Shown here: positions 1,684 to 52,076 of the stretch, in pieces
Layout: each line of letters begins with the position of its first letter
How positions within the stretch are numbered: position 1 is the first letter of the stretch
Origin: a virus
Direction: 5' to 3' (one strand)
DNA length: 64,000 bases
Virus genome (UHGV): UHGV-0026213
The notes under the pieces: generated by a model
The model's database searches: none
What the model saw: the letters and a program-made list of their open reading frames with translations, nothing else
What the model was told of the DNA's origin: nothing
Made by a program: the position numbers and the translations under genes

Positions 1684-4600
1684 CTAAGTACGATCCCCTA
1701 ACTGCTTCCCGTTAAGTTCTCGTTTCAGTACAGCCAAAATCCACTTCCACGCTTTACTCGTGATGTGGTACGGATTGCGTTTCTCCATTAAGAACTGACT
1801 TTCGCCGCTACGGAGTTCGAAGCTCTGCGCATTGAGTTGGTCTTGGCGAACACCGTTCTCGTCAGTGACATCTAACGAACAGGTAAAGTTAAGCTCGTAG
1901 CCTTCAGGATTATTACCCGGTGGTTCTAAGACAATATAAATATCCTGCCCTACACGTAGATCCTTTGGCGTAAGGGTAACTGCTTTACCTGTGTCGGCGC
2001 TGGTCGAAAGCGCAAACGGCACGCTATCAATAGCTGATACATACGCGTCCTTCCCAGCATCGCCGATAATCACCTTACCCGGCCAGTTACACTTCACCGT
2101 TCCTGTCACTTTTGCAATACGGTACTGCTGTTTATCAGTACCTTGTGCAAAGCGTAAAATGAGTTTATGCCGATACCGGTTTGCGGCAGCTTTGGATGTA
2201 CTCCACTCATTGTTCCAGGAGGTATGAAGTTCACCTTTCTTGGCCATCAAAGCACCACGAGACAGCTTACGTGGGAAGAATTGTGCCGGAAGTTGCCCAT
2301 CGTGGGAGATCGCTACACTCCCTTGTCCGGTTGGAAGTGCTATTGTTTCCGTAGGGCAATAATTTAACTCACTCACGTATGATGTAGGATCGATCAATTT
2401 CTGATAGTAATCACCGTCCTTACTGTCCGCTAACCAACCAACGGAAGAGTCCGTATACGATTCAAACAGTGAACGTAAATAGTGATACTTATCGATATCG
2501 ATGTTACCCGTTTTTGGATCGATCAGAGCATGGTTAATAGTGAGGAAACACTTCTCACTCAAACCATTAAACGCCAAACCCACACCGTCACCAGTAAAAT
2601 AGTCTACCAGGTCAAATGGAAGCGTCATTTCTATTTGTCGCAAGTTGATAGTCGTTGAACCAAACTGCGAAAAAGATAGCGCTAAACGAAGTACACGAGT
2701 ATTAACATTATAACGATAACGTATCATCCCACGCGGCGCGTGGTTCGCGGAGATCTTATCACCGTTTGCGCCCCACCCAATTAAATCGAGTATTTCAGCG
2801 TTTGTTACTTCACCGTTAAACAAAACGTCTTTAGTCGTGATTTCAACTGACGTTTCCCTTCCGGCATCCATTAACATCGAACCGTTATTCAACTCGAAGC
2901 TCTTGTGCCAAACTTCTGAAGTCGAGCCAGCACCTACACCCACCTTACAAGTTTTACTAGTAAGGTTAATACGCACATAACGGCGTCCCACTGTACCGCC
3001 CTGCGAGCTTGCACACAAAATAAGATCAGGTGCCGCAGACAGTGCCTTGGTCCCTGCAATGTCATCAACATCGAAAACGAATGAGCCTTCGAACGTTGGT
3101 GCGTTATTTTCCTTCGGGTTAAATGGTGTAAACCAACAATAAGGCATCGCGCCCTCGGTTGAGAAAATCAACTCTAAGTCAGATTTAACATTTAATCCGT
3201 GGGAATAAGAAAAAAGACCGCGACTTAAGGTACAAAGCGTACCACCACTTCCAGCACCTAACAATTTTCGATATATTAAGGCACGGGGTTCTGGGATAGC
3301 ACGGTTTAATAACGGCAACCGTGGGTTATCCGTTAACGTCCAATCTACAGAACTGAGTCCGTGTGCCTTACGAGTGCTAATGTGCTCACTAACCTCGGCA
3401 CTTTTCCCGAAATCAAATGTGGTTTCAAAACTCACGGTTTTATTCGAGTAGGATTCACCACCTGCAACAATATCAACGTAACCGATATAACCGCGCTCAG
3501 GATCGACTGCAATACTCTGAATTGGCTCAGTACGCGAATACAGAGAGCCTGTGAGCATGTTAACGTACAGATAATGACGAATCCCTACGTGTGTTGTAAC
3601 AAACTCTTGGAGAAGCTCTACGTGCGTTTCAGGCCCACTGAAATAAACGGGGTAGTCACCGTCGTAAATTTCGAATTGCACCGCTGCGGATTTAGCCGTG
3701 TCGCTACACTCAGCTTTAACCGCTACGGTGTAGTTTTCAACGTCCGCTGATGTTTCGTACACTGCAACGAGCGGAGACTGGCCTGTGGCTGCCTGGATAC
3801 CGTTAATGTAAACTGTAACCGGGCCACCCCCTGCGGCATAAACCCAAAGCTTCGGCTGGCGTGCCCTTACCCGCGTTTTTGCCAACACAGTAACAACTGA
3901 CTGGTCGCCCATCTGTGAGGCGGTTTTACCTACCGGAACAGATTGGAAACCCATTAGTGGTGGTTCTTCAATACCTGTCCAGTTAATGCCCTTACCAGCG
4001 CTCACTTTCCCCGTAGGCCAGGTCGTCTCAATTTGGTTGTTCGGTGAGAACCAGTTAAACATCGGCGTAGTTTGCAGGTCAATCGAACCTGTAACGGCGC
4101 TATCAGCTTTCGCGCCGTTCAGCAAATAGAAATACTTCAAATCTTGGACGGAGATTGCCGTACCCTGACTATTAAAGCGCCAGTCTGCGCCTTTTACCGC
4201 AGCGAAATCCGTTACCGACCCTTCTTTCGCGTTTGCAATCGCCGCAGCAACCACATCTAAACGCGCCGAAAGTTCTTTTAAGACGTTCGGCACCACTGCA
4301 CGGTTTTCAACCAAACCGTTCTGGTTAGTTGCGTAACGACCGATACCGTAAACGGTTTGCGAGGCTTTATAAATGCCTAGTTCCGACCAATCGTGGTGGT
4401 GACCTGCATCCGCTAAACCACTAAGCGCCGTATTTAACTCGGTAGACAACGGCTTGTCAACGTCTGCGGTGTTATCCGCTTGCCCTAACCCCAGATCAGC
4501 TTTCGTGATTGTCCTGGAGCCGTCATTCATCGGCTTACCGTTAATCATGGTCGTTTTAGCCACATACCCCGATAGGTCAGTTGAGTATGGTGCTAACGAA

Positions 4601-5892
4601 GCCGGTGTTGCAGCAACCCCAGTCGTTTCTGTACCTTTACCTGTTTTAAGTTTAGCGACGCCTTTTTCGGCGGTTGTCGCTTTTGTTGGGTCGATAGTCC
4701 CCACGATAGGGTCGGCGCGAGAACCTTTACCGGTAAAGCTAATCCCATTACGACCTTCAATGTACACCTTCGAGTCATCAGGGTCGCCACCGCCACCAGA
4801 ACCCGCATCTGGATCTTGTTGGTATTCCATCAACGCCGTGGTAGTCAGTAACGGGTTACCGTTCAGGGTGAGTTTGTTCATCCCTAAAGCATCGCCTGTT
4901 GACTCGATGCGTAATGTGTTTTTACCGGCACGCCAGTTGATATAACGTCCTGCACCCGTACCTTCCAGATGCCCTACCGCTAATACCACAGAACCGTTGG
5001 ATTTTAACGTAAAACCATCGTTGGCAAAAATGATTTCGGACTCACCGTTTTTCGAACGGAACTGTGCGCGGTTTCCTGACACCGTACAGTTAAACACGCC
5101 CCGCACTTCCGAAGAAATCCAGTGAGAGATATACGTATCGATAACCGACTGCGGTAAACGAAACGCTTTCAGCTCATCCGTCAGTGCTTTCAACTTTAAC
5201 CCGTACGCCATAAAGGTGTCGGGTGTTTTCAAGTTAACAGGATGCGCGTTAATCTGCGCGGATGTGGTTTCGTGCGGGTTCTTCGCTGCGATATGTGCTG
5301 GGTAATTAAATGCTTCGATTTCTTTACCCAACGCAGTCACTAACGCTTTAACTTCAGCTAATTTGTCTTTAATTAGCTGGTTAGCGTCGTCGGTTTTCAA
5401 TTCAATATCGTGAACTGCCGACGCTAAATATTTTTTGTTCAGCAAATCCGCCCAGGACGTTGCTGCTGGCGTCGCTGGATATAACGATGGTCTACCGTCT
5501 AATAACAGCCAGTCAGCACTGACTGGGTTATTCAAATATTTCACCAGTTCATCGAGAATATCAACAAACGGGTCGTAGAACGTACCGCCGAGCATTTGTC
5601 CTTCAAAGGTTACGATACCCTTGATGGATGGGTTGATAAGGTGTACCCCACAATACACGTTGGCTGCTACCGAGTCATCCAGTTCCGTCAGCTGATATTG
5701 CAGTTCGTAGTCCACCCCACGACTCAGTGGGGTGGTTGAACCTGGTTGTCTGACGACCAAATCTTCAAAGAACGGGCGGTGGTCTAAAATCACCACCCGA
5801 TCGTTGTTGTTCTCTGACCCGATGATACGCTCCTCTAAGAAGTGATTCTCGGCTTTCGTCCCCCGAGGATCGTAAGGATACGCTTTCATCAA
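1684..5892 (-). CDS. Large tail fibre protein (1402 aa)
   Basis: Contains the fibre-type repeat ITKADLGLGQADNTADVDKPLSTEL, a Gly-rich linker (GGGGDPDD) and an HHH motif; adjacent to another giant fibre gene. Confidence 0.6.
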   Translation of the reverse strand: MMKAYPYDPRGTKAENHFLEERIIGSENNNDRVVILDHRPFFEDLVVRQPGSTTPLSRGVDYELQYQLTELDDSVAANVYCGVHLINPSIKGIVTFEGQMLGGTFYDPFVDILDELVKYLNNPVSADWLLLDGRPSLYPATPAATSWADLLNKKYLASAVHDIELKTDDANQLIKDKLAEVKALVTALGKEIEAFNYPAHIAAKNPHETTSAQINAHPVNLKTPDTFMAYGLKLKALTDELKAFRLPQSVIDTYISHWISSEVRGVFNCTVSGNRAQFRSKNGESEIIFANDGFTLKSNGSVVLAVGHLEGTGAGRYINWRAGKNTLRIESTGDALGMNKLTLNGNPLLTTTALMEYQQDPDAGSGGGGDPDDSKVYIEGRNGISFTGKGSRADPIVGTIDPTKATTAEKGVAKLKTGKGTETTGVAATPASLAPYSTDLSGYVAKTTMINGKPMNDGSRTITKADLGLGQADNTADVDKPLSTELNTALSGLADAGHHHDWSELGIYKASQTVYGIGRYATNQNGLVENRAVVPNVLKELSARLDVVAAAIANAKEGSVTDFAAVKGADWRFNSQGTAISVQDLKYFYLLNGAKADSAVTGSIDLQTTPMFNWFSPNNQIETTWPTGKVSAGKGINWTGIEEPPLMGFQSVPVGKTASQMGDQSVVTVLAKTRVRARQPKLWVYAAGGGPVTVYINGIQAATGQSPLVAVYETSADVENYTVAVKAECSDTAKSAAVQFEIYDGDYPVYFSGPETHVELLQEFVTTHVGIRHYLYVNMLTGSLYSRTEPIQSIAVDPERGYIGYVDIVAGGESYSNKTVSFETTFDFGKSAEVSEHISTRKAHGLSSVDWTLTDNPRLPLLNRAIPEPRALIYRKLLGAGSGGTLCTLSRGLFSYSHGLNVKSDLELIFSTEGAMPYCWFTPFNPKENNAPTFEGSFVFDVDDIAGTKALSAAPDLILCASSQGGTVGRRYVRINLTSKTCKVGVGAGSTSEVWHKSFELNNGSMLMDAGRETSVEITTKDVLFNGEVTNAEILDLIGWGANGDKISANHAPRGMIRYRYNVNTRVLRLALSFSQFGSTTINLRQIEMTLPFDLVDYFTGDGVGLAFNGLSEKCFLTINHALIDPKTGNIDIDKYHYLRSLFESYTDSSVGWLADSKDGDYYQKLIDPTSYVSELNYCPTETIALPTGQGSVAISHDGQLPAQFFPRKLSRGALMAKKGELHTSWNNEWSTSKAAANRYRHKLILRFAQGTDKQQYRIAKVTGTVKCNWPGKVIIGDAGKDAYVSAIDSVPFALSTSADTGKAVTLTPKDLRVGQDIYIVLEPPGNNPEGYELNFTCSLDVTDENGVRQDQLNAQSFELRSGESQFLMEKRNPYHITSKAWKWILAVLKRELNGKQLGDRT

Positions 5893-5902
5893 AAAATTCT
5901 CC

Positions 5903-8900
5903 TTAATCGCGAATGATTACCGCCTGCACTTTATTGTTGGTGTCGATAAACGACATTACGCGCTCCTTGTTAAGATAAGGAGGTATCGGTAACGCAGCGT
6001 AATCCACCAGGTTGTTATTAAATTCAGTTGCCACTAACGCATTAAGCGTTTCGGGGTCTGAACTGACACCGGTCAATTCCATAACGCGCACACGATTTAA
6101 TGAGGAATAGTTGCTAATATAGTCTAACAACGTACCATAGACTTTATTCGCGGTTGCGCTATCTGCCGTAGAACGGATGTTGGCACGAACTTCATCCTCA
6201 TAAAGTCCCCCTAAACCGTAGTAAATAGGGGTATACGGATCGTTAACGATAGGTTCGATATTGAACCCTGTTAAACGGTCGGTTAATGGGATTTTCTGCG
6301 TAGTTCCCCCTGCCGCCGTACAACTTACATATTTGTCCGTCGCAGATAAATGCACCGCGACAGTATACGTAGTCCCCGCTAAGGTCAGTCTTGCACTAAA
6401 CGTTATTGCGTTGGTTGCACTACGGTTGTGGGTAAACGATACTTCAGGTTGTAATGAACTCCACGGTGCTGGCGTGACACGTTTCGTTGGTGTGAAACCC
6501 ACCACTACCGATTTCCCGCTACCGAAGTTCAAACCGAACCCTGCGTAACAATATTCACCGTTACTGTCGGTTAAACGATACCCGCGAGTGATAAGTAACG
6601 ACAACCGCATAAACTCGCCGTCGGTGTTTTTCCAACAACCTAAAACAGTTTCTAACACCGTGCCGGTTTTTGCGTTGCTTTCTGTTTCCCAACTGACTCG
6701 CATTCCTGCGTTCTTAAAAGCTGGGAACATGTTGTGGATAAACCCGTGTAGGTTATCGCTTACCCCTTTCGCGTCAAAAATCCACTTGGATGCGAGCTGG
6801 TCGTATTTCACCCCGTCTAAAGCTTTATACTGCCCACCGGCAACATAACGCCAATCTGCTTCACCGCGTACTACTGCCTGGAGTCCAGAAGCCCAGCAAG
6901 GCGCACCTACTGTTAAGTTAGCTAACCCAAGCGCTGCACGTGACGCGGAGCGCTGAATGTGTGCGTTGTCATCGGCTTTATGATCTTTCAGTTCACGGAA
7001 ATCGCCCAACCGTGTGACATTACGCATCTCCGTAACGAACACCTCAGAAATGTCGTTAACACCAATCAACCCTACACGCGTCATGGTATCCGTTTCAGCC
7101 TGACTGTAGCTGTCGTGGACAATATACTTCGCTTTGTTGTCAACAATATCAACAAAAATCCCTGCGTAGATTTCTGTATTCAATTTCGGAAAACGTTCAC
7201 TGACGTTAATCGTCATCAACGGAACGTCGTATGTTTCACCACCGATAAAATACGTTGAAGCTGGAAGCGTGACCAGAATTTTGTCTTTGACCGTAAGGTC
7301 TATTAAGTCGTTACCAGACTCACCAAAACGTATAATGTCAAGACGTGCCTCCGAGTCAACACCGCTGACAGCGCGCTCCAATTTTTCAATCTGGGATGTC
7401 TGCGCCATTACCACACTCCCATCGAGTGCTAAAGTCACATCATCCACATCCAGACCAAATTTAATCAGACCACGTTGCGCTGTGGTTGCGTTCCCTGTAC
7501 CAAAAGCGGTAAACGGGTGTTGGTGAACTTTAGGCGAGTATTTATCTAACTCCGCACGCTGTGCTGTAGAAATCGGTAAATCGGCATCGGGCGTATTCGC
7601 AACATTACCTAAACCAAAGGTAATCTTATCGATAGTAACCGAGCTGGTAAGTTGCATGTCGTTAATGTACGATTTAACTGCAACTAACTTACCGGTGAAC
7701 TCCGCATCGAGTTTTTCAATCAGTGCTGGCGTTGCTGCAAGGTTTTCAGCGGTACCGAACTCATCGGTCAACTGCCAAGCTGCCAGAGCTGTTGTATCGG
7801 TCGCGGTAGGAAGAATAAAGGTCGCTACGAACGGCGAGGCTTTTATCCCGCTACCGGTGATCGTAACCGTTGTTGTCGAACTTGCGTAGAATAAACCTGT
7901 GCCACCTGCGGTATTGCCTGGCAGATACGGGGCTACGGTGGTGGGGTCTAAGAGTTTTTTACCACGCCACAACAATCCTCGGTCATCGGGGTATAGCACA
8001 AGCTGGTTAGTACCTGCTTGGAACGTTACGGGGTTGTTACCCACGTTAACATCAGTTGAACCTTGGCCAATAAACTTGATGGATTTCGGATCAACAACAA
8101 ACTGGGCACCTAAACGTGTCTCGTCAACAACATCCGGTGCTTTCTTAATGGTAACCGTGTTACCTTTGTTTTGCGAACTAATGGTAACGGCGTCGGCAAC
8201 ATTATTGATCAGCGATTTAAAGTGGTGCTGATTCTCTAATGCTTCTAACGCAGCGTCCATGTTATCGAAGTTAATCCGACCGCTATACGTTTTACCGTTT
8301 ACGGTAATAACGACGTCAAACACGTTCCCTGTACGCTTCAGTTGAAAACGTAGCGTAAAATCCCCATCCGGTATTGCCGGATTAGGAGCTTGAGAAATAT
8401 AACGTACCGACGGTAACGGACTCCCGTAACCGTTCAATGTCAGACTGATAGTAAGGGTACCACCCCAGATTTGACCAGTAATCTCTACGAACTTACCGGA
8501 GTTACTACCCGGGTTTTCGTAGAAACGTAAACCAACCCTACCGACCGCTTCATTACCAGACGCTGTTTTACGTCCAGTAACAATAAAGTCAATATCTTGC
8601 AGGTTGGCAGGCACTGCATTAAAGTTAGCAATGAAACCGCTTTTCGCTCCTGTATAACGAAGCGCGCCGTGATATCTGTGACCACTACTAACATAGCTTT
8701 CGCTAAAATAAGGACTCACGTATTTCGACATCGAGACCGGATCAACTTCCGTCGTGAACGAAGTAAAACCCGGAAGTGTGGTAATCGTGCCGTTAACGTT
8801 CTTGCTCGGCGATTCACGAAGCAGTTTTTTCTGTGCGGTTAACGTTGCTTGTGTTGGGTACTTAGCATTAACATAATCCGTTAACTGCTGTTTCGTCTTC

Positions 8901-10225
8901 CCGTAAGCTAACGCGGCATCTGTCGCAATACCATTCAGCTCTAACGCACGGATCGGACCCCACGTATCGGTGTGCGGGTTGTCCTTACGTGTAACGTGTT
9001 CGTGTGCAGGCGCGTTACGATACAGCTGCTCAACTAACTGATGGTATTTGACTATTAACTGGTAAACATCGTTATCGATGTCAGGTTCTGGTGCGCCGGG
9101 TAAAGAACGAATTTGAATATAATCGTTTTCGGCCGCATACCAGTTTAAATTAATGTTCGTTTTAAACTTCAACCATTTAGCAACATCCGTTTTCGAATAC
9201 CCTGCCGAGAACTCATCAGGCGGCGTATCGACATTGAATGTGTAATCCATGGTCTGTTTATTTGTTTTTACTACGATGACGTAAACACCGTTTCCGGGTT
9301 GACGGGTTACACTAAAATCGATATCGTTTTTTAACTCATCGTCAGTTAAACCGTTGATTAACGTATAATCGTAGTTTGTTGAACCGCTACCAATAGCGAC
9401 CGTTAAGACCAGTGAGATTTTGCGCTGTTTTAGCTGCAGCCGTAGAATACTTGCACCGCCGTTAGCATAACAGAGCATCCAATCGATCTGTTCGTTTGGA
9501 TTCAATTTCGTCATGTCTGGCAGAATAGCAGGAATTATGTGTTTCACTGACAGGGCGTAGTCGTTAAAGGTTGCAGTTTTATAACTCAAGCTATAACGAT
9601 GACGGGCAGTGTTGTAGGTGAAGCCACCTTTATTGTCGTATACGGCATACTGCTCGGAAGTGATAACCTTGCTATTAGCACGGTATTCTAAATCCAGGGT
9701 ATTGCGTGCGATGGGGTTAAGCCGACTCACGACTTCCCCTAACGAATCGCCTAATCCAGCAATAGCCTGCATTAATTCCAGTTCACCTTTCCAATTCTCC
9801 CAATCGAACTGAATATCGACCGGCGGAAAGTAAACGTCCCCGATGACGGTGTCCCACTGACACGCAGACGGGTATTTATCTTTATTGAGTTCGCGTTCTG
9901 CGCTAATCTGTTGTTGGGTAGCCTGACCACAACCAACGGCGTGGTAATCTACCGTAAAATTCGATTTGTATTTGTCATTAACAATCCAAATCATCCCGTG
10001 AATGAGATAGGCTGTGCGCAACATACCGGTCTCGTACGGGTGTGTAATAACGTAATCGTCGCCTAAGGTCAGTGTTTTGCCGCCGCTCTTGACCACCAGG
10101 GATGTGGTGAAAAAAGGGGCGTGGGCAGGTACCAACATTCGGTATTTCGTACCAATGACGGCGACCGCTTCACCGGTTATTTTATTCCCCGGTTTTTTGA
10201 AGTGTGGGTCTAAGACGACAGCCAT
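5903..10225 (-). CDS. Large tail fibre protein (1440 aa)
   Basis: Contains the repeat KITFGLGNVANTPDADLPISTAQRAEL, matching the motif in the neighbouring fibre; 10-nt gap to the downstream gene suggests co-transcription. Confidence 0.6.
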   Translation of the reverse strand: MAVVLDPHFKKPGNKITGEAVAVIGTKYRMLVPAHAPFFTTSLVVKSGGKTLTLGDDYVITHPYETGMLRTAYLIHGMIWIVNDKYKSNFTVDYHAVGCGQATQQQISAERELNKDKYPSACQWDTVIGDVYFPPVDIQFDWENWKGELELMQAIAGLGDSLGEVVSRLNPIARNTLDLEYRANSKVITSEQYAVYDNKGGFTYNTARHRYSLSYKTATFNDYALSVKHIIPAILPDMTKLNPNEQIDWMLCYANGGASILRLQLKQRKISLVLTVAIGSGSTNYDYTLINGLTDDELKNDIDFSVTRQPGNGVYVIVVKTNKQTMDYTFNVDTPPDEFSAGYSKTDVAKWLKFKTNINLNWYAAENDYIQIRSLPGAPEPDIDNDVYQLIVKYHQLVEQLYRNAPAHEHVTRKDNPHTDTWGPIRALELNGIATDAALAYGKTKQQLTDYVNAKYPTQATLTAQKKLLRESPSKNVNGTITTLPGFTSFTTEVDPVSMSKYVSPYFSESYVSSGHRYHGALRYTGAKSGFIANFNAVPANLQDIDFIVTGRKTASGNEAVGRVGLRFYENPGSNSGKFVEITGQIWGGTLTISLTLNGYGSPLPSVRYISQAPNPAIPDGDFTLRFQLKRTGNVFDVVITVNGKTYSGRINFDNMDAALEALENQHHFKSLINNVADAVTISSQNKGNTVTIKKAPDVVDETRLGAQFVVDPKSIKFIGQGSTDVNVGNNPVTFQAGTNQLVLYPDDRGLLWRGKKLLDPTTVAPYLPGNTAGGTGLFYASSTTTVTITGSGIKASPFVATFILPTATDTTALAAWQLTDEFGTAENLAATPALIEKLDAEFTGKLVAVKSYINDMQLTSSVTIDKITFGLGNVANTPDADLPISTAQRAELDKYSPKVHQHPFTAFGTGNATTAQRGLIKFGLDVDDVTLALDGSVVMAQTSQIEKLERAVSGVDSEARLDIIRFGESGNDLIDLTVKDKILVTLPASTYFIGGETYDVPLMTINVSERFPKLNTEIYAGIFVDIVDNKAKYIVHDSYSQAETDTMTRVGLIGVNDISEVFVTEMRNVTRLGDFRELKDHKADDNAHIQRSASRAALGLANLTVGAPCWASGLQAVVRGEADWRYVAGGQYKALDGVKYDQLASKWIFDAKGVSDNLHGFIHNMFPAFKNAGMRVSWETESNAKTGTVLETVLGCWKNTDGEFMRLSLLITRGYRLTDSNGEYCYAGFGLNFGSGKSVVVGFTPTKRVTPAPWSSLQPEVSFTHNRSATNAITFSARLTLAGTTYTVAVHLSATDKYVSCTAAGGTTQKIPLTDRLTGFNIEPIVNDPYTPIYYGLGGLYEDEVRANIRSTADSATANKVYGTLLDYISNYSSLNRVRVMELTGVSSDPETLNALVATEFNNNLVDYAALPIPPYLNKERVMSFIDTNNKVQAVIIRD

Positions 10226-11607: not shown

Positions 11608-11817
11608 TTAGTCTTTTTTGTAGACAATTGCGTTACCGTGCAGTTTGTTGTTGCCGGAAATACCGATAACTTTGAATGCGTCGCCGCCAATTTTTTCAGC
11701 TTCAGCAGCCAGCTTACCCGTTACATGATCAACGGTGTCGCCGAAAGCGCTAACGTTACCGATTTTCTTAAACTCTTCTGGAATATGCTCAGCAGAAGAG
11801 AACTCTTTAATAGACAT
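11608..11817 (-). CDS. DUF1471 (YdgH/BhsA/McbA-like) domain protein without signal peptide
   Basis: C-terminus VIGISGNNKLHGNAIVYKKD and upstream GDTVDHVTGKLAAEAEKIGGDAF match the enterobacterial DUF1471 signature. Likely start is the internal ATG (MSIKEF, GGAGAG SD); the ORF-track start at 11835 is TTG. Confidence 0.55.
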   Translation of the reverse strand: MSIKEFSSAEHIPEEFKKIGNVSAFGDTVDHVTGKLAAEAEKIGGDAFKVIGISGNNKLHGNAIVYKKD

Positions 11818-12023
11818 AACAGCTCTCCATTTCAAAAGGAAGGTGGTCTAAGACCGACGTGTGTTACAACCGAAGCATAAGATAGCTCCTCCCCGTAGGG
11901 AGGAGTAGAGTGCGCGAAAAAAGTGGCCTGCTTAACTAAACGATGGGTTTAAGAAAAGTGTTGATAAAAAGCTTTACCAACGTCAGGTCACAATATATAA
12001 ACACAACGTAAGAAAAAGGGGAA

Positions 12024-13017: not shown

Positions 13018-13041
13018 TCAGATATATATTACTTAAGTGAA
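13018..13041 (+). promoter_or_regulatory. Promoter-like motif TTCAGATATATATTACTTAAGTGA (copy 1)
   Basis: Near-identical 24-mer recurs at about 17405; preceded by TTGAAT; lies in the 370-nt divergent intergenic region. Confidence 0.4.
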
Positions 13042-13410
13042 TAGGGGCTGAAGTGCCAGTTCAGCCACTACGGACACGTTTCATTCGAAACGGATTGATT
13101 AAACCATTTGGGGAGACAGATCATGTCTACTAAAAAGAAAGAAAGTCTCAATGAGCTGCTCAAACGGCTTAAAGACTACACTCCATTTAGTACCTTCCGA
13201 TAACAGGTACTAAAATTTTACAGTCTGTCCCTTTATTCTGCTACTCGGGATACCGGTAGGGGGTAGGGGGCATTATGTATACGGATATAAATAGCGGAGG
13301 TATACGGAGTATACCGACATACTCTTCCCAGAGGAACGTAGTGACTTCCTTATACCTCTTTTACAATCCATAATAATAGCCTTCCCTTCATTGGGATTAG
13401 CGAGTAAATC

Positions 13411-14148
13411 ATGAGAGAATTATTAGACGATATCTTTACCAACACCAGTTTAGAACTTTCTTCTACGGTGGTTAACGAACTAATAGGGCAAACCCAACCT
13501 GCTAAGTTAATCGATGTTGGAACAATTAAACCTGAAGATTATCCAGACAGTGACGTTATCGACTGTATGATTGACGAATACGTGATAGGAAGTTACGCCA
13601 ACCGCGTCTTCTTTGTTATTAATACCGAAACCAGTGTCATGTTAATCTATAAGTTGATCAGTGATGCCGAACTTGAAGTTGTGGCTGACCACATTCGTCT
13701 TCTTGCGAACACACCTACTAGTATCGCTGATGTGCTTATTGGGAACGGTTGGGCTTTACCACCACTATTCTCTTACTTCCCTCTGTTTAGAAATGGGATA
13801 GGGTTACTCCGAAATGCAGAAAATCTTCCCGATAACGTCGAGTTATCACTGCTTGGACCCGGCATCGATCTTTGTCCATTAGAAGACGAGGGCACGCTAT
13901 ATGGTTTGCGCATCTATGTTTCTGTGTTAAACGGATACCGCGTTATTGAACTAATTGCATCCGACTTAGCAAAACAGATCCCAGATGTGGAAACGATTTC
14001 TAAAGCCACCCACCTGGTTGAGATTAACTCAGATGATCCCTTATTGAAATATCACGAGAAAATTGATCTTCGTAAAATCGCCACGATGAGAGGGTGGGGT
14101 TGTGCTGAGATTACGAAGGACTATCTGCTGTTAATTAAAACCGCGTAA
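13411..14148 (+). CDS. Hypothetical protein, member A of a tandem paralog array
   Basis: C-terminus MRGWGCAEITKDYLLLIKTA weakly resembles the GW..QLLF tail of the next three genes. Confidence 0.5.
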   Translation: MRELLDDIFTNTSLELSSTVVNELIGQTQPAKLIDVGTIKPEDYPDSDVIDCMIDEYVIGSYANRVFFVINTETSVMLIYKLISDAELEVVADHIRLLANTPTSIADVLIGNGWALPPLFSYFPLFRNGIGLLRNAENLPDNVELSLLGPGIDLCPLEDEGTLYGLRIYVSVLNGYRVIELIASDLAKQIPDVETISKATHLVEINSDDPLLKYHEKIDLRKIATMRGWGCAEITKDYLLLIKTA

Positions 14149-14177
14149 TTAAGAAAACCGAAAAAGGAGAATATACC

Positions 14178-14732
14178 ATGTTTCAAACTGAACTGAAAAA
14201 TGAAATTATCCAAACCCTTGAAAAGGGCGTAGGCGAACATTTCTTTGTCCGTCCTTATACCGTACTGACCAATACCATTATTCAGCCTGGTGCGATGATA
14301 GTAGGGGTAAGTGTACAAGCTGTAGAGGAAACCCCGCTGCGTCGTAACATCACACGTAAAACCCATATCCCATTTAAAACAGGTTTTACAGATTACCTTC
14401 AGAGCTTACTGGGGGATAGCGCTTGGAAAACAGGCAGCTTCTTCCACGAAGGGAAGACTTCCACGCTGGTTTATAAAGAGAGCACCAAGTATCTGGTTGA
14501 TTTTCTCTTAGCGCGTCAGTATACTTTCTTTCCAACCCCTACTGACTGCACCCCAGACAACCCAGGTAAGTTATTAAACCAAAGCGAAGCCGAGGCACTC
14601 TTTACAAGACTTCGGAATGAACAGTGCGATGTTGACGACTGGGAAACGTTGATCGCGGTCGCTAAAGCCCACGGTTGGTATACCGTACGTAAAATCGGCC
14701 AGCAGCTGTTGTTCTTAGCTTACCCTGCTTAA
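14178..14732 (+). CDS. Hypothetical protein, paralog family member B
   Basis: SD AAGGAG upstream; C-terminal HGWYTVRKIGQQLLFLAYPA. Confidence 0.6.
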   Translation: MFQTELKNEIIQTLEKGVGEHFFVRPYTVLTNTIIQPGAMIVGVSVQAVEETPLRRNITRKTHIPFKTGFTDYLQSLLGDSAWKTGSFFHEGKTSTLVYKESTKYLVDFLLARQYTFFPTPTDCTPDNPGKLLNQSEAEALFTRLRNEQCDVDDWETLIAVAKAHGWYTVRKIGQQLLFLAYPA

Positions 14733-14761
14733 GTAACGAAAAAACCTAAAGGAGAGTAAAA

Positions 14762-15913
14762 ATGCGAAATATTATTTCTAAACCAGGACATGCCAAGATC
14801 CTAAAAGAACTGATGGACAGATGCTATAATCGGACTTGGTCACTACCAAGCTTAACCATCGAATCTTCATTACAACGTGAGTTGTTTGGTTATAACTTGG
14901 GCTGCTGTGTACTTACTGAATACAATGAGATTATCGCACCTGTCGATGTCTGTACTTACGATGAAGAAATTGAAGGTTACAAGTTCGCGGTTTACACAAA
15001 TTGTGGACTAAATTACCGTAAACTCGTTGTTAGGGAAAAGAGTAGCAACCGGAAGATTATGTTTAAGGTCTTCCCAAGTGGTAAAGTCAGTAATTTATGT
15101 CTTCAGCTTGAGAAAGTGCCCTTTCACGGTGCAGCCATTTTAACTAAACCAGAACTCCTGTTATTAAGCGGGTTAATTGGCTTTGAAGTAAAAACCATCA
15201 AAGTTGAGCAGGAACTTACACGAAACGATTTCGGCTCAACTTGGTACGAAAGTTTCTTCCGCTACGAAATGTTAAGTGATAAAGCTATCAAACTCACTTA
15301 CCGTTCTACCGACGATATCGTTTACCACATTTTAATTAGCGGCGAACCCCACCAGATTATTGAAGACGAAGGAGAAAAATCAGTGTGCACCTTAAAAGAT
15401 GAATTAACTGATTTTGTTAACAAAATTGATAACGTGGGTATCAGTGAATTATTGTTCCCGATACAGCATCCAGAGTTGCTTGACGAGAAATCTGAAAACG
15501 TGGTTATGGGTGTGCATTTACTTCCTGACCATCTTGCTATCTACCGTACACTTTCTAAAAATCAACTTAAAGTGTGGTGCCTGTTAAAAGACCTTTTAAC
15601 AGAGGCGGGGTGGTCGTGTAGTGTAGATGTTAACTGTGAAGGAGTTGCGTTCTTCATCACAATAGGCAATCGTAGTTTTTCTGTCGATTTACCTACTCGC
15701 AGCTATTACAATTTCTTCCCGACCGCAGAAGGACGTACTGAAAAAGAACCCGCATTACTGCTCAGTGCTGAGGAGTCCAATGCGTTAATGACGAAACTAA
15801 AAGCGAAAGACGAGAAGCTGGATGCTTTACATCTACCTATAATCGGGAAAGACTACGGTTGGGCTGACGTGCAAAAATACGGCAGCCAACTGTTGTTTGT
15901 TGCCAACATTTAA
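14762..15913 (+). CDS. Hypothetical protein, paralog family member C
   Basis: SD AAAGGAG upstream; C-terminal YGWADVQKYGSQLLFVANI. Confidence 0.6.
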   Translation: MRNIISKPGHAKILKELMDRCYNRTWSLPSLTIESSLQRELFGYNLGCCVLTEYNEIIAPVDVCTYDEEIEGYKFAVYTNCGLNYRKLVVREKSSNRKIMFKVFPSGKVSNLCLQLEKVPFHGAAILTKPELLLLSGLIGFEVKTIKVEQELTRNDFGSTWYESFFRYEMLSDKAIKLTYRSTDDIVYHILISGEPHQIIEDEGEKSVCTLKDELTDFVNKIDNVGISELLFPIQHPELLDEKSENVVMGVHLLPDHLAIYRTLSKNQLKVWCLLKDLLTEAGWSCSVDVNCEGVAFFITIGNRSFSVDLPTRSYYNFFPTAEGRTEKEPALLLSAEESNALMTKLKAKDEKLDALHLPIIGKDYGWADVQKYGSQLLFVANI

Positions 15914-15980
15914 TAAGTGAAACTACACTTTCTCTAACTGCCGCGCTTTAGTCGCGGCTTTTGTTAAGAAGGAAATAGAA

Positions 15981-16754
15981 ATGAAAGTCCATTTAGACGA
16001 TATCTTTAAAACCGAACCGTATATGATCGAAGGCCCGCTATCATCACTACTATTTGCCGATAGATTAGATCGTACGCTGCAATTACAATCGGTCGAATCT
16101 GCACCCGTTGATGATGTAGAGCGTTACGAGCGCATCAACCATACGCGGGGTGAGTATCGTCGCTATAAGCCAAATTCACTAAGCATCAAGCTCTGGCAAG
16201 TGAGCACAGGTAAAGTATTAACTTATCGCGCTGTTGGTAGTTATTACATTCAACAAGCCAAGGAATGGCTAGAGAAAGTTAAAGAACTGAACTTCGATCT
16301 ACTGAGCAAAAAACTGCGCGATCATAACGCCAGTTTGCCGATACGTAATTATTTCTCCACGATTGAAAATAGTCGTTGTTTCGTTTCTCGTGAATCCACG
16401 ATATTACCTGGGGATGATGTTCAGACGACACTAAAAGATGTGGTTGTGAAGAAAATCTTTCATGAATCTGAACACGTTGGGTTCCGTATCTACTTAACAC
16501 ACAAGAGACCATTTACCGTTATTCACGTTGATACCGCACCCGAAGGCTCAGCGGTTATTCGAGAACTTCCTGATGCTCGAGACCGTTGCCCTAATGAGCC
16601 GCTTTATTTAATGTCAGGAACAAAATCAACCGCGTTGATGTCCCGTTACAGCATGTTAGATGTTGTTGACGCTGCTATGAAACTAGGTTGGAAAGAAGTG
16701 CAGCAACATGGTAAACAATTGCTGTTTATTGCCGATGTAAAACTTAATCAATAG
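15981..16754 (+). CDS. Hypothetical protein, paralog family member D
   Basis: C-terminal LGWKEVQQHGKQLLFIADV. Confidence 0.6.
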   Translation: MKVHLDDIFKTEPYMIEGPLSSLLFADRLDRTLQLQSVESAPVDDVERYERINHTRGEYRRYKPNSLSIKLWQVSTGKVLTYRAVGSYYIQQAKEWLEKVKELNFDLLSKKLRDHNASLPIRNYFSTIENSRCFVSRESTILPGDDVQTTLKDVVVKKIFHESEHVGFRIYLTHKRPFTVIHVDTAPEGSAVIRELPDARDRCPNEPLYLMSGTKSTALMSRYSMLDVVDAAMKLGWKEVQQHGKQLLFIADVKLNQ

Positions 16755-17348: not shown

Positions 17349-17385
17349 CGGTGGGGGTTTACCCCCCACCTTTTATTTTTTTGTT
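17349..17385 (+). terminator. Intrinsic terminator
   Basis: GGTGGGGGTTTACCCCCCACC hairpin followed by TTTTATTTTTTT. Confidence 0.6.
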
Positions 17386-17404: not shown

Positions 17405-17428
17405 TTCAGATATATATTACTTAGGTGA
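17405..17428 (+). promoter_or_regulatory. Promoter-like motif TTCAGATATATATTACTTAGGTGA (copy 2)
   Basis: Second copy of the 13018 motif, preceded by an AT-rich tract and about 50 nt upstream of the 17477 gene. Confidence 0.45.
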
Positions 17429-17476: not shown

Positions 17477-17938
17477 ATGAAAATCTTCACTTCCTTTTTA
17501 ATCGCCCTTTTCGTAATCGGTTTCAATACTGCACACGCCGCTATCAATAACTGGGAACAAATACAAAACCCTGGCCAGGCAGTTTACGAAATTGAAGACA
17601 CCGCCGGAAACGGACTGTCTATCAACTGTGACACAGAAACTGCGAATCGCAAATTTTACGGTCGCATGGTTTGGTATTACGGTGAACCCGTAGGTGCAAC
17701 TAACGCGGAAGATAACACGTTGGATATTGTCGTAAACGGCAAGACCTATAACATCCCTACCGTGGACGGTAGTGACAAAGCAGAACACGCTTGGGTTGCT
17801 TTCGTTAATGCTATCGGTAATGCCAAAACTTTCAGTGTGAGTATCAATGGTAACGACACCGCTAACTTTACCGTAGAAGGCGAACGTCTGTCTGAAACTT
17901 TCTTCCAGAACTGTGGACACACCCGTCCTAACAAATAA
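17477..17938 (+). CDS. Small secreted protein (153 aa)
   Basis: N-terminal signal peptide MKIFTSFLIALFVIGFNTAHA; SD GAAGGAG. Confidence 0.55.
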   Translation: MKIFTSFLIALFVIGFNTAHAAINNWEQIQNPGQAVYEIEDTAGNGLSINCDTETANRKFYGRMVWYYGEPVGATNAEDNTLDIVVNGKTYNIPTVDGSDKAEHAWVAFVNAIGNAKTFSVSINGNDTANFTVEGERLSETFFQNCGHTRPNK

Positions 17939-17960
17939 CTATTAGTCTTTTTTAGAGTGC

Positions 17961-18353
17961 GTGAAAATGAATATCAGAACTATACTTTATATCATCATTA
18001 TTTTCTGTGCGGTCGGAATTACTGGCACTTATGCTTTCGGTGATTCGGATGTCCGCTATTACGAACCGGCTCCTGACTCACCGATTATCAACCCGGATGA
18101 GACGCCTGCGTTAATGCGCAGTTTCGGTAAACTGCAAGTTTATCGTTTAGTGCGTGGTGAAACCTGTACGGGTTTACTCATTGCTGACACCCGTGCACAA
18201 GTCTACCAACGTCTAACCGATATCGCCTGCGAACAACCAAAAGTCATGTCGGTTAGTATCCATCCGCTATCAGTTGGTAACTATACCGCTGTGGACTTCT
18301 TTCACAACGCCGAATTAATCGGGCGCGTTACCTTAAATCGTCCTGCCGAATAA
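17961..18353 (+). CDS. Small secreted or membrane-anchored protein (130 aa)
   Basis: Hydrophobic N-terminus ILYIIIIFCAVGITGTYA. Confidence 0.5.
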   Translation: MKMNIRTILYIIIIFCAVGITGTYAFGDSDVRYYEPAPDSPIINPDETPALMRSFGKLQVYRLVRGETCTGLLIADTRAQVYQRLTDIACEQPKVMSVSIHPLSVGNYTAVDFFHNAELIGRVTLNRPAE

Positions 18354-18371
18354 TCTAAAGGAGTAGTTATA

Positions 18372-18857
18372 ATGAAACGTTTACACACATTGATGTTCTT
18401 TCTGGTTTTCTTGTTTATCGGTACCACGCCAACTGTAGATGCGGCCTCCGTAGACGAATTGCTTACCTGCGATGGAAACGCTTGGGAAGGTCAGCCAAAT
18501 GCGTGCCCAAACATCAACGACTTGTACGATACCGATAAGTCGTTTAAAGCCGTTGTTGATAAAACATTAGACCCTGTGGGGCTGGATGGTATGTTCGGCT
18601 CTAAAGGTTACATGGATGGTCCTGGCGGTAACATGTATCCGGTAAACATCAACAACAAAATCTGGATTGAAAGTGGCGGTTGTAAAGCTAACGCTTGTGG
18701 TTGGGAATACATCGTAACGCTATACAACCCACACACCAAGAAACTCGTCGGCTATTACTACAACATCGACCCCGGTTATCTGATTTGGTTCGGTGATATC
18801 GGTGTTGCTGAATTCGCTTACCTGGTTAAGAAGTACGTAGAACAATCTAAATACTAA
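18372..18857 (+). CDS. Small secreted Cys-containing protein (161 aa)
   Basis: Signal peptide MKRLHTLMFFLVFLFIGTTPTVDA; SD AAAGGAG. Confidence 0.55.
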   Translation: MKRLHTLMFFLVFLFIGTTPTVDAASVDELLTCDGNAWEGQPNACPNINDLYDTDKSFKAVVDKTLDPVGLDGMFGSKGYMDGPGGNMYPVNINNKIWIESGGCKANACGWEYIVTLYNPHTKKLVGYYYNIDPGYLIWFGDIGVAEFAYLVKKYVEQSKY

Positions 18858-18868
18858 GGACTTTTATC

Positions 18869-19279
18869 ATGAAAACTATCATTAATACTCTTCTCATTGC
18901 AATTGCTGTTCTGTTCTCTGTCAACGCTACAGCAAAGACAATACAGTTGCCAGACAATATTAAGTACGTCAATAGCACCGATGATTTCTATTGTACGGAA
19001 ATTGACGGCTTGTACTGTCAGGCAAAGAGCCTGTTTAAATACAAAGGTAGCAGATACGTATTCATCGTTGAGCAAGGTGGTGCCTGGTGCTACGACAGCC
19101 CAATGTCCGTACTCAACCTCGAAACGTGGAAGGCTCAGCGTCTCGAATACAACGACAAACGTCTGTGCTCTGGTAATAACAAACCATTCTTCAAAGTCGT
19201 AGATGGTGTGCCAATGGTAGGGATATTAGACACTTCGGAAAAACCTATCGTTGTAGCTATGGATAAACTTAAAATTTAA
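18869..19279 (+). CDS. Small secreted Cys-containing protein (136 aa)
   Basis: Signal peptide MKTIINTLLIAIAVLFSVNATA. Confidence 0.55.
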   Translation: MKTIINTLLIAIAVLFSVNATAKTIQLPDNIKYVNSTDDFYCTEIDGLYCQAKSLFKYKGSRYVFIVEQGGAWCYDSPMSVLNLETWKAQRLEYNDKRLCSGNNKPFFKVVDGVPMVGILDTSEKPIVVAMDKLKI

Positions 19280-50224: not shown

Positions 50225-50544
50225 TGACTGTGAACGACAATATAAAGAAAAAGATTGACGAAATCATAAGCGTCAGTTTAGATAGAATCGAATTAATTCC
50301 CGAAACTAAGGAGATCAAATATTACGTTCCTGCGGACGAACTATTTCCAGGTCTTCTTAGAATCTCACCAAAAAAGGTTGAAGAGGCTAAACGGCAATTC
50401 GAAGTTCGTGGCCTTAAGGTTGACATTGTTAACAAAAAACATTTCCAAGTAACGTATAGTCAGGAAAACATTATATTTAGTCCTGAACAAGCGCAACGTA
50501 ATTTAGATATTTTAACGAAACGAATGGGGAATAATAACAAATGA
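50224..50544 (+). CDS. Hypothetical protein (106 aa)
   Basis: Start overlaps the upstream stop; its stop overlaps the thyA start. Confidence 0.4.
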   Translation: MTVNDNIKKKIDEIISVSLDRIELIPETKEIKYYVPADELFPGLLRISPKKVEEAKRQFEVRGLKVDIVNKKHFQVTYSQENIIFSPEQAQRNLDILTKRMGNNNK

Positions 50545-52076
50545 AACAGTATTTAGCGTTAATGCAAGACATTCTGGATAACGGTGTTGTCAAGAAAGAC
50601 CGCACAGGTGTAGGGACACTATCTGTATTTGGTCGTCAACTACGTTTTGACCTGAAAGAAGGTTTCCCATTAGTTACTACGAAGAAGGTTCACCTGAAAA
50701 GTATCATTCATGAACTGTTGTGGTTCTTAAACGGTGACACTAACGTGAAGTACCTGCAAGAGAACGGGGTAAAAATTTGGGATTCATGGAGGCGGCCATA
50801 CGTAGGTTTTACTGGTAAAGTCATTCGCATTCCACGATTGAAAAAAGAATACGTCCCTTTTAATGGAACTTTTCCTTTGGCCATTCCTAGTTTCGATTCA
50901 ATAGAAGATAAAAAATTGGCATACGCCTGGAAACGAATGATGCATCGCTGTTATGATAAAACAGCACATAACTACCGACATTATGGTGCAAAGGGTGTAA
51001 GCGTTGCTTTACGTTGGCACGACGTAACTAATTTTGTTAACGATGTTAAAAAACTGCAAAATTGGTTTTATAAAAGTAAGAACTGGAATGACTTCGAACT
51101 CGATAAAGATTATTACGGCTCCAATCAATATTGCCCCGACGGATGTGTATGGCTCAGTAGAGGAGAAAACGTCCATCATGCGTGGGTACGCATTATTAAA
51201 GGTGACGGAACACAATACATTTGCCGAACGTATAAACATGCATCCCAATTAACTGGTTTAAGCAAAACATCCATCCACAGATTCGTTAAGGAAGGCATTA
51301 CCCCACATCTTAAAGGAAATAACAGAATCAAAGGTGTAAAAAATTGGATTATGCAAAAAGCTACTACTGAAGACTACCTCTATCGCAACGAAATTAACGA
51401 CGACGGAGATTTAGGCCCAGTCTACGGTAAACAATGGCGAGATTGGGTAGGTCCAGACGGTCGCCACCACGACCAGATCAGCAAAGTTATCCAACAACTT
51501 CGTGAAGACCCTGACTCCCGCCGTATTATCGTTAGCGCCTGGAATGTAGGTGACCTGGACGATATGGCACTTAATCCATGCCACAACTATTTCCAATTCT
51601 ACACAACAGAAATGACGTTGCTTGAACGACTGGATTGGTACGAAGCAAATGAACCGGAAAAATTTGCGAACGCGCCACTTATTAATCACGAAGATATTGA
51701 TGATGAAGAACGACTTCATGAAACTTTAGATCGTGAAGGTATCCCTCGTCGTAAGCTTTCATGTTTTTACATGATGCGGAGCAACGATTACCTACTCGGC
51801 GCGCCATTTAACGTCGCTTCGTACGCGTTGTTAACTCACATGATTGCACAGCAGTTGAACATGGTTCCAGACGAGTTGGTTTATAGTGGTGTAGATGTTC
51901 ATCTTTACTCTAACCATCTGGAGCAGGCAAAACTACAACTTACTCGCGAACCTTACCCGCTACCTAAACTGGTTATCAAACGTAAACCTGATTCCATCTT
52001 CGATTACAAATACGAAGACTTCGAATTAGTTGGTTATCAATCGCACGACACAATTAAAGCTCCCATAGCTGTCTAA
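50541..52076 (+). CDS. thyA: Thymidylate synthase with two in-frame insertions (511 aa)
   Basis: N-terminus MKQYLALMQDILDNGVVKKDRTGVGTLSVFG, and GDLGPVYGKQWR, DSRRIIVSAWNVGDLDDMALNPCH, PFNVASYALLTHMIAQQ, PLPKLVIKRKPDSIFDY all align with ThyA; catalytic Cys retained. About 205 extra aa after IWDSW and about 46 extra aa after QFYTT. Confidence 0.85.
   Translation: MKQYLALMQDILDNGVVKKDRTGVGTLSVFGRQLRFDLKEGFPLVTTKKVHLKSIIHELLWFLNGDTNVKYLQENGVKIWDSWRRPYVGFTGKVIRIPRLKKEYVPFNGTFPLAIPSFDSIEDKKLAYAWKRMMHRCYDKTAHNYRHYGAKGVSVALRWHDVTNFVNDVKKLQNWFYKSKNWNDFELDKDYYGSNQYCPDGCVWLSRGENVHHAWVRIIKGDGTQYICRTYKHASQLTGLSKTSIHRFVKEGITPHLKGNNRIKGVKNWIMQKATTEDYLYRNEINDDGDLGPVYGKQWRDWVGPDGRHHDQISKVIQQLREDPDSRRIIVSAWNVGDLDDMALNPCHNYFQFYTTEMTLLERLDWYEANEPEKFANAPLINHEDIDDEERLHETLDREGIPRRKLSCFYMMRSNDYLLGAPFNVASYALLTHMIAQQLNMVPDELVYSGVDVHLYSNHLEQAKLQLTREPYPLPKLVIKRKPDSIFDYKYEDFELVGYQSHDTIKAPIAV

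Follow-up and report, generated by a model that had tools for sequence, protein, structure and literature searches.

A small protein module shared by neighbouring paralogs in a hypervariable gene array of an SPN3US-like jumbo phage

Four neighbouring genes with dissimilar N-terminal regions, read from one strand of the virus genome UHGV-0026213, raise the question of whether they form a single family, and of what such an array could do for the phage that carries it. The stretch analyzed here, called the window below, is 64,000 nt of this genome, and the genes, named A, B, C and D, start at positions 13411, 14178, 14762 and 15981. A preliminary description, made from the sequence alone, had presented them as four consecutive paralogs joined by a short C-terminal tail, with a weaker resemblance in the first of them, and possibly as an expanded and fast-evolving early family. 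The four open reading frames (ORFs) were recovered at the coordinates proposed there (Table 1), all on the + strand with gaps of 29–67 nt between them, and the C-terminal tails that had been quoted are exact (...HGWYTVRKIGQQLLFLAYPA in B, ...YGWADVQKYGSQLLFVANI in C, ...LGWKEVQQHGKQLLFIADVKLNQ in D and ...RGWGCAEITKDYLLLIKTA in A).

Judged by their sequences, B, C and D are paralogs with certainty. Pairwise BLASTP comparisons gave 30.6% identity over 108 aa between B and C (E = 7e-13), 37.5% over 64 aa between C and D (E = 2e-9), and 33% over 63 aa between B and D (E = 2e-5). A family hidden Markov model (HMM), built from 82 diverse sequences with B, C and D included, scored B at 62.8 bits, D at 62.4 bits and C at 54.2 bits, and a six-frame scan of the window with the family HMMs found nothing above noise besides these three genes. 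The significant similarity covers 63–108 aa and therefore extends beyond the 17-aa tail on which the genes had been grouped; between B and C, it reaches further upstream than the core module (B 74–181 vs C 275–381). Thus, the shared part exists as proposed, but it is not short, a folded domain of about 65 aa being predicted in place of a tail.

This module begins with the motif [FIL]PD..DR[ST].N[DEN]P.YL[ML]S, continues with two helices separated by a variable insertion, and finishes with the hairpin GW..V...G.Q.L[FL][IV]; its predicted fold is beta-alpha-alpha-beta-beta. The N-terminal motif is full in D (LPDARDRCPNEPLYLMS) and partial in C (FPTAEGRTEKEPALLLS) and B (FPTPTDCTPDNPGKLLN). The C-terminal hairpin, located at or near the end of the protein, is exact in B, C and D.

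Gene A is where the resemblance had been described as weaker, and this was confirmed, as HMMER gave it 1.9–2.3 bits, which is the level of noise. Of the N-terminal motif, A (IPDVETISKATHLVEI) keeps IPD and the spacing alone, and its terminal hairpin (GWGCAEITKDYLLLI) shows GW-x9-LL[L]I in register with V, G and Q missing. When the A family was aligned by hhalign with a module-only profile, only the last 23–25 columns were matched, in register, with a probability of 2% for a 9-sequence profile and of 56% (P = 1.1e-4) for the 82-sequence profile. A longer alignment was obtained between the A family (24 sequences) and the D family (11 sequences): it runs end to end over 232 columns with 19% identity (P = 1e-4, probability 58%), beginning at a shared M..LDDIF and closing at GW...LL[FL]I. 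When modelled with AlphaFold2, A and D present their secondary-structure elements in the same order along the whole chain, the terminal beta-alpha-alpha-beta-beta included. In A (pLDDT 77, pTM 0.66), the predicted module elements are E200–204, H210–214, H220–226, E231–234 and E238–242; in D (pLDDT 55 overall, 83–92 over the module, residues ~190–251), they are E208–211, H213–222, H225–234, E237–243 and E246–251. Based on the family alignment and on the matching order of elements, A is rated a probable fourth paralog. We consider it likely that A is a diverged full-length paralog of D which has lost the PD..DR..NEP.YLMS motif and has kept IPD and GW-x9-LLLI.

Beyond the window, a profile search of 1.84 billion representatives recovered 97 proteins (cluster representatives) at E<=1e-3. 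Among 209 matching proteins, the module is C-terminal in 143, makes up a stand-alone protein (<=135 aa) in 55, and is N-terminal in 11. Stand-alone versions of only 72–100 aa show that the module can fold without a partner region, and presumably it can act without one too. After removal of the module, the partner regions of 51 members fell into at least 24 groups without BLAST-detectable similarity between them. In one subgroup, modules that are 80–95% identical sit on N-termini without detectable similarity; for example, the modules of P0195 and P0203 are 95% identical and their N-termini are unrelated. These comparisons show that, at the sequence level, the module stays constant across the family and the rest of the protein has been exchanged or has diverged beyond recognition. 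The mean net charge of the module is -0.9, that is, slightly acidic on average, and such a non-basic module would favour protein binding over DNA binding.

All carriers whose genome or contig size was checked are jumbo phages. Matches to PHROGs were found for C and D. Five PHROGs (26772, 33648, 24489, 18480 and 27793), all of unknown function, match the module through their C-termini only, so that the module unites, by sequence similarity, five families kept separate until now. Since PHROGs splits proteins by full-length similarity, the shared domain is not recorded there as such. Pfam and NCBIfam scans of A–D, of the stand-alone modules and of the 51 full-length members returned no curated family and no fused known domain, and 49 module-only sequences gave no recurrent weak match in Pfam. 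Profile searches for relatives in the PDB gave nothing significant, the best match being T4 EndoII (E = 0.43), and fold searches gave no significant match; in BFVD, fold matches were to uncharacterised proteins only, those with a name coming from Erwinia, Klebsiella and Pantoea phages. A GIY-YIG nuclease was considered and rejected, as neither the T4 EndoII match nor that to a GIY-YIG protein of a Bacillus phage (E = 0.25, probability 0.33) is significant, and the alignment contains neither the GIY nor the YIG motif. A tblastn search of deposited phages with full-length C found nothing; the module is too short and too diverged for whole-database E-values, and profiles are needed to see it. In databases, the family is thus present as unrelated-looking "hypothetical" proteins and as PHROGs of unknown function. 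In the literature on SPN3US, every mention of "gp175" referred to a phiKZ or PhiPA3 protein, and nothing was found on gp174–gp179. In the literature searched, no description was found of the shared domain, of its confinement to jumbo phages among the checked carriers, of its fixed slot or of its expansion in one clade.

Orthologs and gene order identify the window as part of an SPN3US/phiEaH2-like jumbo phage of enterobacteria. Orthologs of proteins from the SPN3US gp168–gp239 region lie in the window in SPN3US order, hence the assignment as SPN3US-like (Seoulvirus/Erskinevirus-related); this order is followed by the spike/baseplate, SbcC-like, RNase H, UvsX, ThyA and large virion proteins. 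A neighbouring 420-aa tail-associated protein is 76–81% identical to SPN3US gp171, Asesino gp191 and their phiEaH2 counterpart, and gp171 is an essential tail-associated protein of SPN3US (PMC5105663). Asesino is a chimallivirus for which nucleus formation was shown experimentally (PMC11724907). The tie of the window to this nucleus-forming group was drawn from orthologs and gene order. Megablast of the region against deposited phages gave no matching record from the window's own clade. This clade is abundant as 220–227-kb contigs in metagenomes and in Salmonella, Shigella and E. coli assemblies, and relatives are deposited as circular "plasmids" of ~222 kb in E. coli 98232 (NZ_CP173450.1, here L016) and Enterobacter ludwigii (NZ_CP134650.1, here L017). 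Such "plasmid" deposits and contigs in bacterial assemblies suggest a carrier state or pseudolysogeny of a chimallivirus-like phage. L016 and L017 were used, with a third locus (L003), for comparisons within the clade.

The array lies in a syntenic slot. In the window, L003, L016, L017, SPN3US, Asesino and the loci L004–L006, this slot is formed by the first + strand genes beside the divergently transcribed baseplate-spike gene. Related phages were shown to have one module gene in this slot, against three to four in the window's clade. With two divergent modules as queries, tblastn hit one place per genome in all 72 and all 57 matching phage records, respectively, all carriers being jumbo phages of 220–305 kb, and an HMM scan of the complete SPN3US genome found gp175 only. 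The window, L003 and L016 have A, B, C and D; in L017, A is absent without any remnant and the invariant leader described below abuts B. The idea of an expanded family was therefore supported, with 3–4 copies in this clade vs one in the 72 jumbo-phage records and in the whole SPN3US genome. The same slot holds gp175 (412 aa) in SPN3US and gp195 (223 aa) in Asesino; both proteins end in the module, and D matches the C-terminus of gp175 at E = 1.5e-11. These two proteins and J7KJG5 of phiEaH2 resemble the array genes in their C-terminal module, in their slot by the divergent spike gene and in the kind of promoter motif; however, they are single-copy and their N-terminal bodies are unrelated to those of A–D. 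As for the other slot neighbours, orthologs of SPN3US gp174, gp176, gp178 and gp179 (Asesino gp194, 196, 198 and 199) are absent from the whole 64-kb window, and the gp177 family (gene E) alone is retained. The slot is thus plastic, with a gene content that is largely replaced between genera. Tandem paralog expansion in phiKZ-related giant phages is also represented by the head and ejection-protein paralogs of SPN3US and phiKZ (PMC5694885), but those are virion proteins with full-length similarity, whereas A–D share a small module and appear non-structural.

Identities were calculated by gene between the window and L003. The flanking genes are 91–95% identical in amino acids, D 93% and E 92%, against 52% for A and 43% for B. 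Gene C is 73% identical overall, with ~87–93% over residues 1–180 and 33–57% over about residues 211–360. Fast evolution, which had been proposed for the four genes together, was thus found in A, B and the 3′ part of C, but not in D, whose conservation equals that of the genes around it. Along the DNA, identity changes abruptly from block to block and forms a mosaic. Identity falls to 45–55% in the body of A, to 44–45% in the 5′ and middle parts of B, and to 49–65% at 15411–15860 in C, and the sequence around these low blocks is mostly 72–98% identical; it reaches 95% in the leader, 89–96% from the 3′ end of B through the 5′ half of C, and 83–95% from the end of C through D and E to ~18260. 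Even among three genomes with flanks that are 97–99% identical, B is only 72–82% identical. The synonymous divergence (dS) of B is raised about four-fold in 2 of 3 comparisons. The sharp low-identity blocks and the raised dS in B indicate that much of the divergence comes from replacement of segments by recombination rather than from the speed of point mutation. The ratio of nonsynonymous to synonymous divergence (dN/dS) is 0.03–0.11 in the flanks and 0.08–0.10 in D, vs 0.24–0.27 in A and 0.16–0.48 in B. Taken together, the identity, mosaic and dN/dS patterns point to A, B and part of C as hotspots of allele replacement under relaxed or diversifying selection. The array is in this respect a hypervariable family of phage accessory paralogs, a phenomenon familiar in kind, and a typical arms-race accessory locus.

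The genes belong to a co-oriented block that runs from a promoter-like motif at 13020 through a micro-ORF and an invariant leader to A, B, C, D and E, and ends at a terminator-like hairpin at 17350. The AT-rich motif (consensus AGATATATATTACTTA[AG]GTG; short form AGATATATATTAC) occurs twice in the window, at 13020–13039 and 17408–17427, vs 0.1 copies expected by chance. In SPN3US (L011–L015), it has at least 15 sites on the + strand, and those checked against the annotation lie ~70–110 nt upstream of operon starts, gp175 included; copies are also found upstream of Asesino gp195 and of P0194 in L004. Early promoters of jumbo phages are phage-specific AT-rich motifs of ~10 nt recognised by the virion RNA polymerase (RNAP) (PMC7598289), a description which the motif of the window fits. 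The SPN3US-like phages probably have in this motif the consensus of their early (virion RNAP) promoters, and this match makes the early timing suggested for the array genes plausible. A sigma-70 promoter scan gave nothing better than shuffled sequences.

Two further elements separate this motif from gene A. The micro-ORF starts with ATG and recurs in frame, with similar length and residue pattern, in L003, L016 and L017, where the nucleotide sequence has diverged strongly; it is possibly a first cistron or a leader peptide. The leader element is ~100% identical in the four clade genomes although the adjacent sequence differs. Part of it recurs in SPN3US ahead of gp174, where the palindrome carries a compensatory change. 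It may be an operator or an RNA leader. A known RNA was discarded as an identity for it, since the search against Rfam gave no match and its folding is modest (z = -2.6). At the other end of the block, gene E was assigned through phrog_20879 (1.3e-32) and through BLASTP matches to SPN3US gp177 and Asesino gp197 (1.5e-22 and 1.7e-21); it gave no match to the module HMMs and stands outside the family.

How, then, could such an array work? B, C, D and probably A form a module family in an expanded, recombining slot. The reading that we prefer for it, to which we would give about an even chance, is that the module binds a conserved partner and the variable bodies give specificity. The module, small and slightly acidic, would be a domain for binding proteins; its one conserved partner would be a machine of the phage or a hub conserved in the host, and the variable regions would supply specificity for variable host factors. 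On this view, A–D would be adaptors that act early, in contacts with the host or against its defences, and every paralog would have a target of its own. The 3′ ends that encode the module, which are conserved, and the invariant leader might serve as homology anchors for the swapping of variable cassettes between co-infecting relatives.

Several points weigh against this reading. Gene A is at the noise level of the family HMMs and is not significant by BLAST either. The N-terminal two-thirds of the D model have low confidence (pLDDT <50 for 134 residues). No gene shows a gene-wide dN/dS >1, and positive selection is therefore not demonstrated. The early timing is drawn from the promoter motif, and a role in partner binding or as an adaptor was read only from how the proteins are built and how they vary. 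Also, gene E was considered as the conserved partner and was rejected, as module genes outside the SPN3US/Asesino/window group are not accompanied by it.

The main rival, suggested by the stand-alone forms, makes the module itself the effector: acting early, it would inhibit or modulate a single conserved protein of the host, as do other small phage host-takeover proteins of 70–100 aa, with the N-terminal regions as dispensable additions or regulators. We regard it as rather unlikely. It agrees with the 55 of 209 members that have little beyond the module, and with a module which is slightly acidic and is the only strongly conserved part of these proteins. However, it does not explain why 3–4 copies with different bodies are found in one clade, nor why these bodies are kept as long ORFs with dN/dS well below 1 (0.16–0.48).

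A further reading was also envisaged, which we hold to be more doubtful still. The module would here be a dedicated docking or sorting domain of nucleus-forming jumbo phages, through which effector bodies that can be interchanged are plugged into a single conserved machine of phage or host. Examples of such a machine would be the shell of the phage nucleus or its import apparatus, the vesicle around the injected genome early in infection, and a protease or RNAP hub of the host. The slot would be a plug-and-play site for counter-defence cassettes, and the leader and the module-coding ends would be its recombination anchors.

The two next explanations seem to us improbable to the same degree. 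The first takes the module for a DNA-binding domain of the winged-helix type; the proteins would regulate transcription or be DNA-associated regulators of another sort, and their variable parts would be sensor domains. The predicted order, (short H)-beta-alpha-alpha-beta-beta, indeed resembles a winged helix, the terminal beta-hairpin contains the G.Q pair as in the winged helices of Hop2/TBPIP and Mnd1, and one stand-alone member was found below threshold on the TBPIP/Hop2 and Mnd1 Pfam models (E = 0.009 and 0.12). This lead was not supported: there is no significant profile or structure match, the module is not basic, its first helix is rudimentary, and it does not qualify as a winged helix-turn-helix (wHTH) domain.

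According to the second, the module is a packaging or targeting tag that sends variable cargo into the virion or another phage compartment, as the capsid-targeting sequence of the T4 internal proteins (IP) does. In the hyperplastic IP locus of T4-like phages, a conserved capsid-targeting sequence is carried by highly variable anti-restriction proteins; this tag is an N-terminal peptide of ~10 residues which is cleaved by the prohead protease, and the proteins are packaged. The likeness lies in a constant element on rapidly exchanged bodies, in a copy number and content that vary among close relatives, and in the arms-race interpretation, whereas the constant part of A–D is a predicted folded domain of ~65 aa, mostly C-terminal and also found alone. 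The same logic of constant tag and variable body, and the position of the locus among tail and baseplate genes, speak for such a tag, and chimalliviruses must sort proteins between compartments (PMC11724907). Nevertheless, the genes are on the strand opposite to the structural genes and behind an early-type promoter motif, SPN3US gp175 is not named among virion proteins in the SPN3US proteomics literature searched, and stand-alone modules would be tags without cargo.

Finally, a short chance or low-complexity tail on unrelated genes, the outcome that the preliminary description had named as its refutation, has a practically negligible probability: apart from the noise-level scores of A nothing favours it, and for B, C and D chance similarity is excluded by pairwise E-values down to 7e-13 over 63–108 aa, by HMM scores of 54–63 bits and by the recovery of the domain in 97 independent cluster representatives.

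The SPN3US- and phiKZ-type jumbo phages serve to study the phage nucleus as models and are therapeutic candidates against Salmonella, E. coli and Erwinia, and most of their early accessory genes are without known function. Here, a domain without curated model marks a fixed hypervariable slot across several genera, with one clade in which the slot is expanded, and the module, its partner and A–D form a small, concrete target for experiments. If the reading with a constant module and variable bodies is true, the locus would show in compact form how these phages adapt in host range or counter-defence; if it is wrong, the locus would be an ordinary accessory family with fast turnover.

Table 1. 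Features of the array and of its surroundings in the window.
Feature	Coordinates	Strand	Remarks
AT-rich promoter-like motif AGATATATATTACTTAAGTG	13020..13039	+	Head of the intergenic region of the array
26-aa micro-ORF (MSTKKKESLNELLKRLKDYTPFSTFR)	13124..13204	+	Read from sequence; between promoter motif and invariant element
Near-invariant non-coding leader of ~150 nt with G-runs	13215..13365	+	Contains GGTAGGGGGTAGGGGG and palindrome GGTATACGGAGTATACC (13299–13315)
Gene A, 245 aa	13411..14148	+	Probably a full-length paralog of D that has diverged; hypervariable; lacking in part of the clade
Putative degenerate module of A, residues ~190–243	13978..14139	+	IPD...GW-x9-LLLI; hhalign tail in register; HMMER not significant
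Gene B, 184 aa	14178..14732	+	Family HMM 62.8 bits; strongest variability hotspot
Core module of B, residues ~117–182	14526..14723	+	hmmsearch alignment coordinates
Gene C, 383 aa	14762..15913	+	Family HMM 54.2 bits; conserved 5′ half, replaced 3′ part
Core module of C, residues ~318–383	15713..15910	+	hmmsearch alignment coordinates
Terminator-like hairpin between C and D	15940..15958	+	Consensus scan only
Gene D, 257 aa	15981..16754	+	Family HMM 62.4 bits; conserved member, closest to SPN3US gp175
Core module of D, residues ~196–252	16566..16736	+	hmmsearch coordinates
Gene E, 192 aa	16767..17345	+	Ortholog of SPN3US gp177 and Asesino gp197; final gene in the presumed unit
Strong terminator-like hairpin (8 bp, 7 GC, T-run)	17350..17370	+	Closes the unit; next promoter motif follows at 17408

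Other features of the window were observed around the array. Downstream of it, at 17477–19279 (+), four consecutive small proteins (153, 130, 161 and 136 aa) all have signal-peptide-like hydrophobic N-termini, and the downstream genes of 161, 136 and 129 aa, with 65–79% amino acid identity to L003, are more variable than their surroundings. Upstream, between tail and baseplate genes, a small YdgH/BhsA (DUF1471)-like protein is encoded at 11608–11835 (-) and is conserved in all the relatives examined; YdgH/BhsA (DUF1471) is a bacterial family of periplasmic stress proteins. Two adjacent giant virion proteins of 1402 and 1440 aa, encoded at 1684–5892 (-) and 5903–10225 (-), cross-match each other's PHROGs (8078, 7557, 7449 and 2163) and appear to be partial paralogs, as are gp169 and gp170 in SPN3US. 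At 50541–52076 (+), the thymidylate synthase ORF has 511 aa, vs 338 aa for SPN3US ThyA (gp229), with an HNH-endonuclease-like stretch at residues ~120–271, and this additional stretch may be an in-frame insertion of the homing-endonuclease or intein type.

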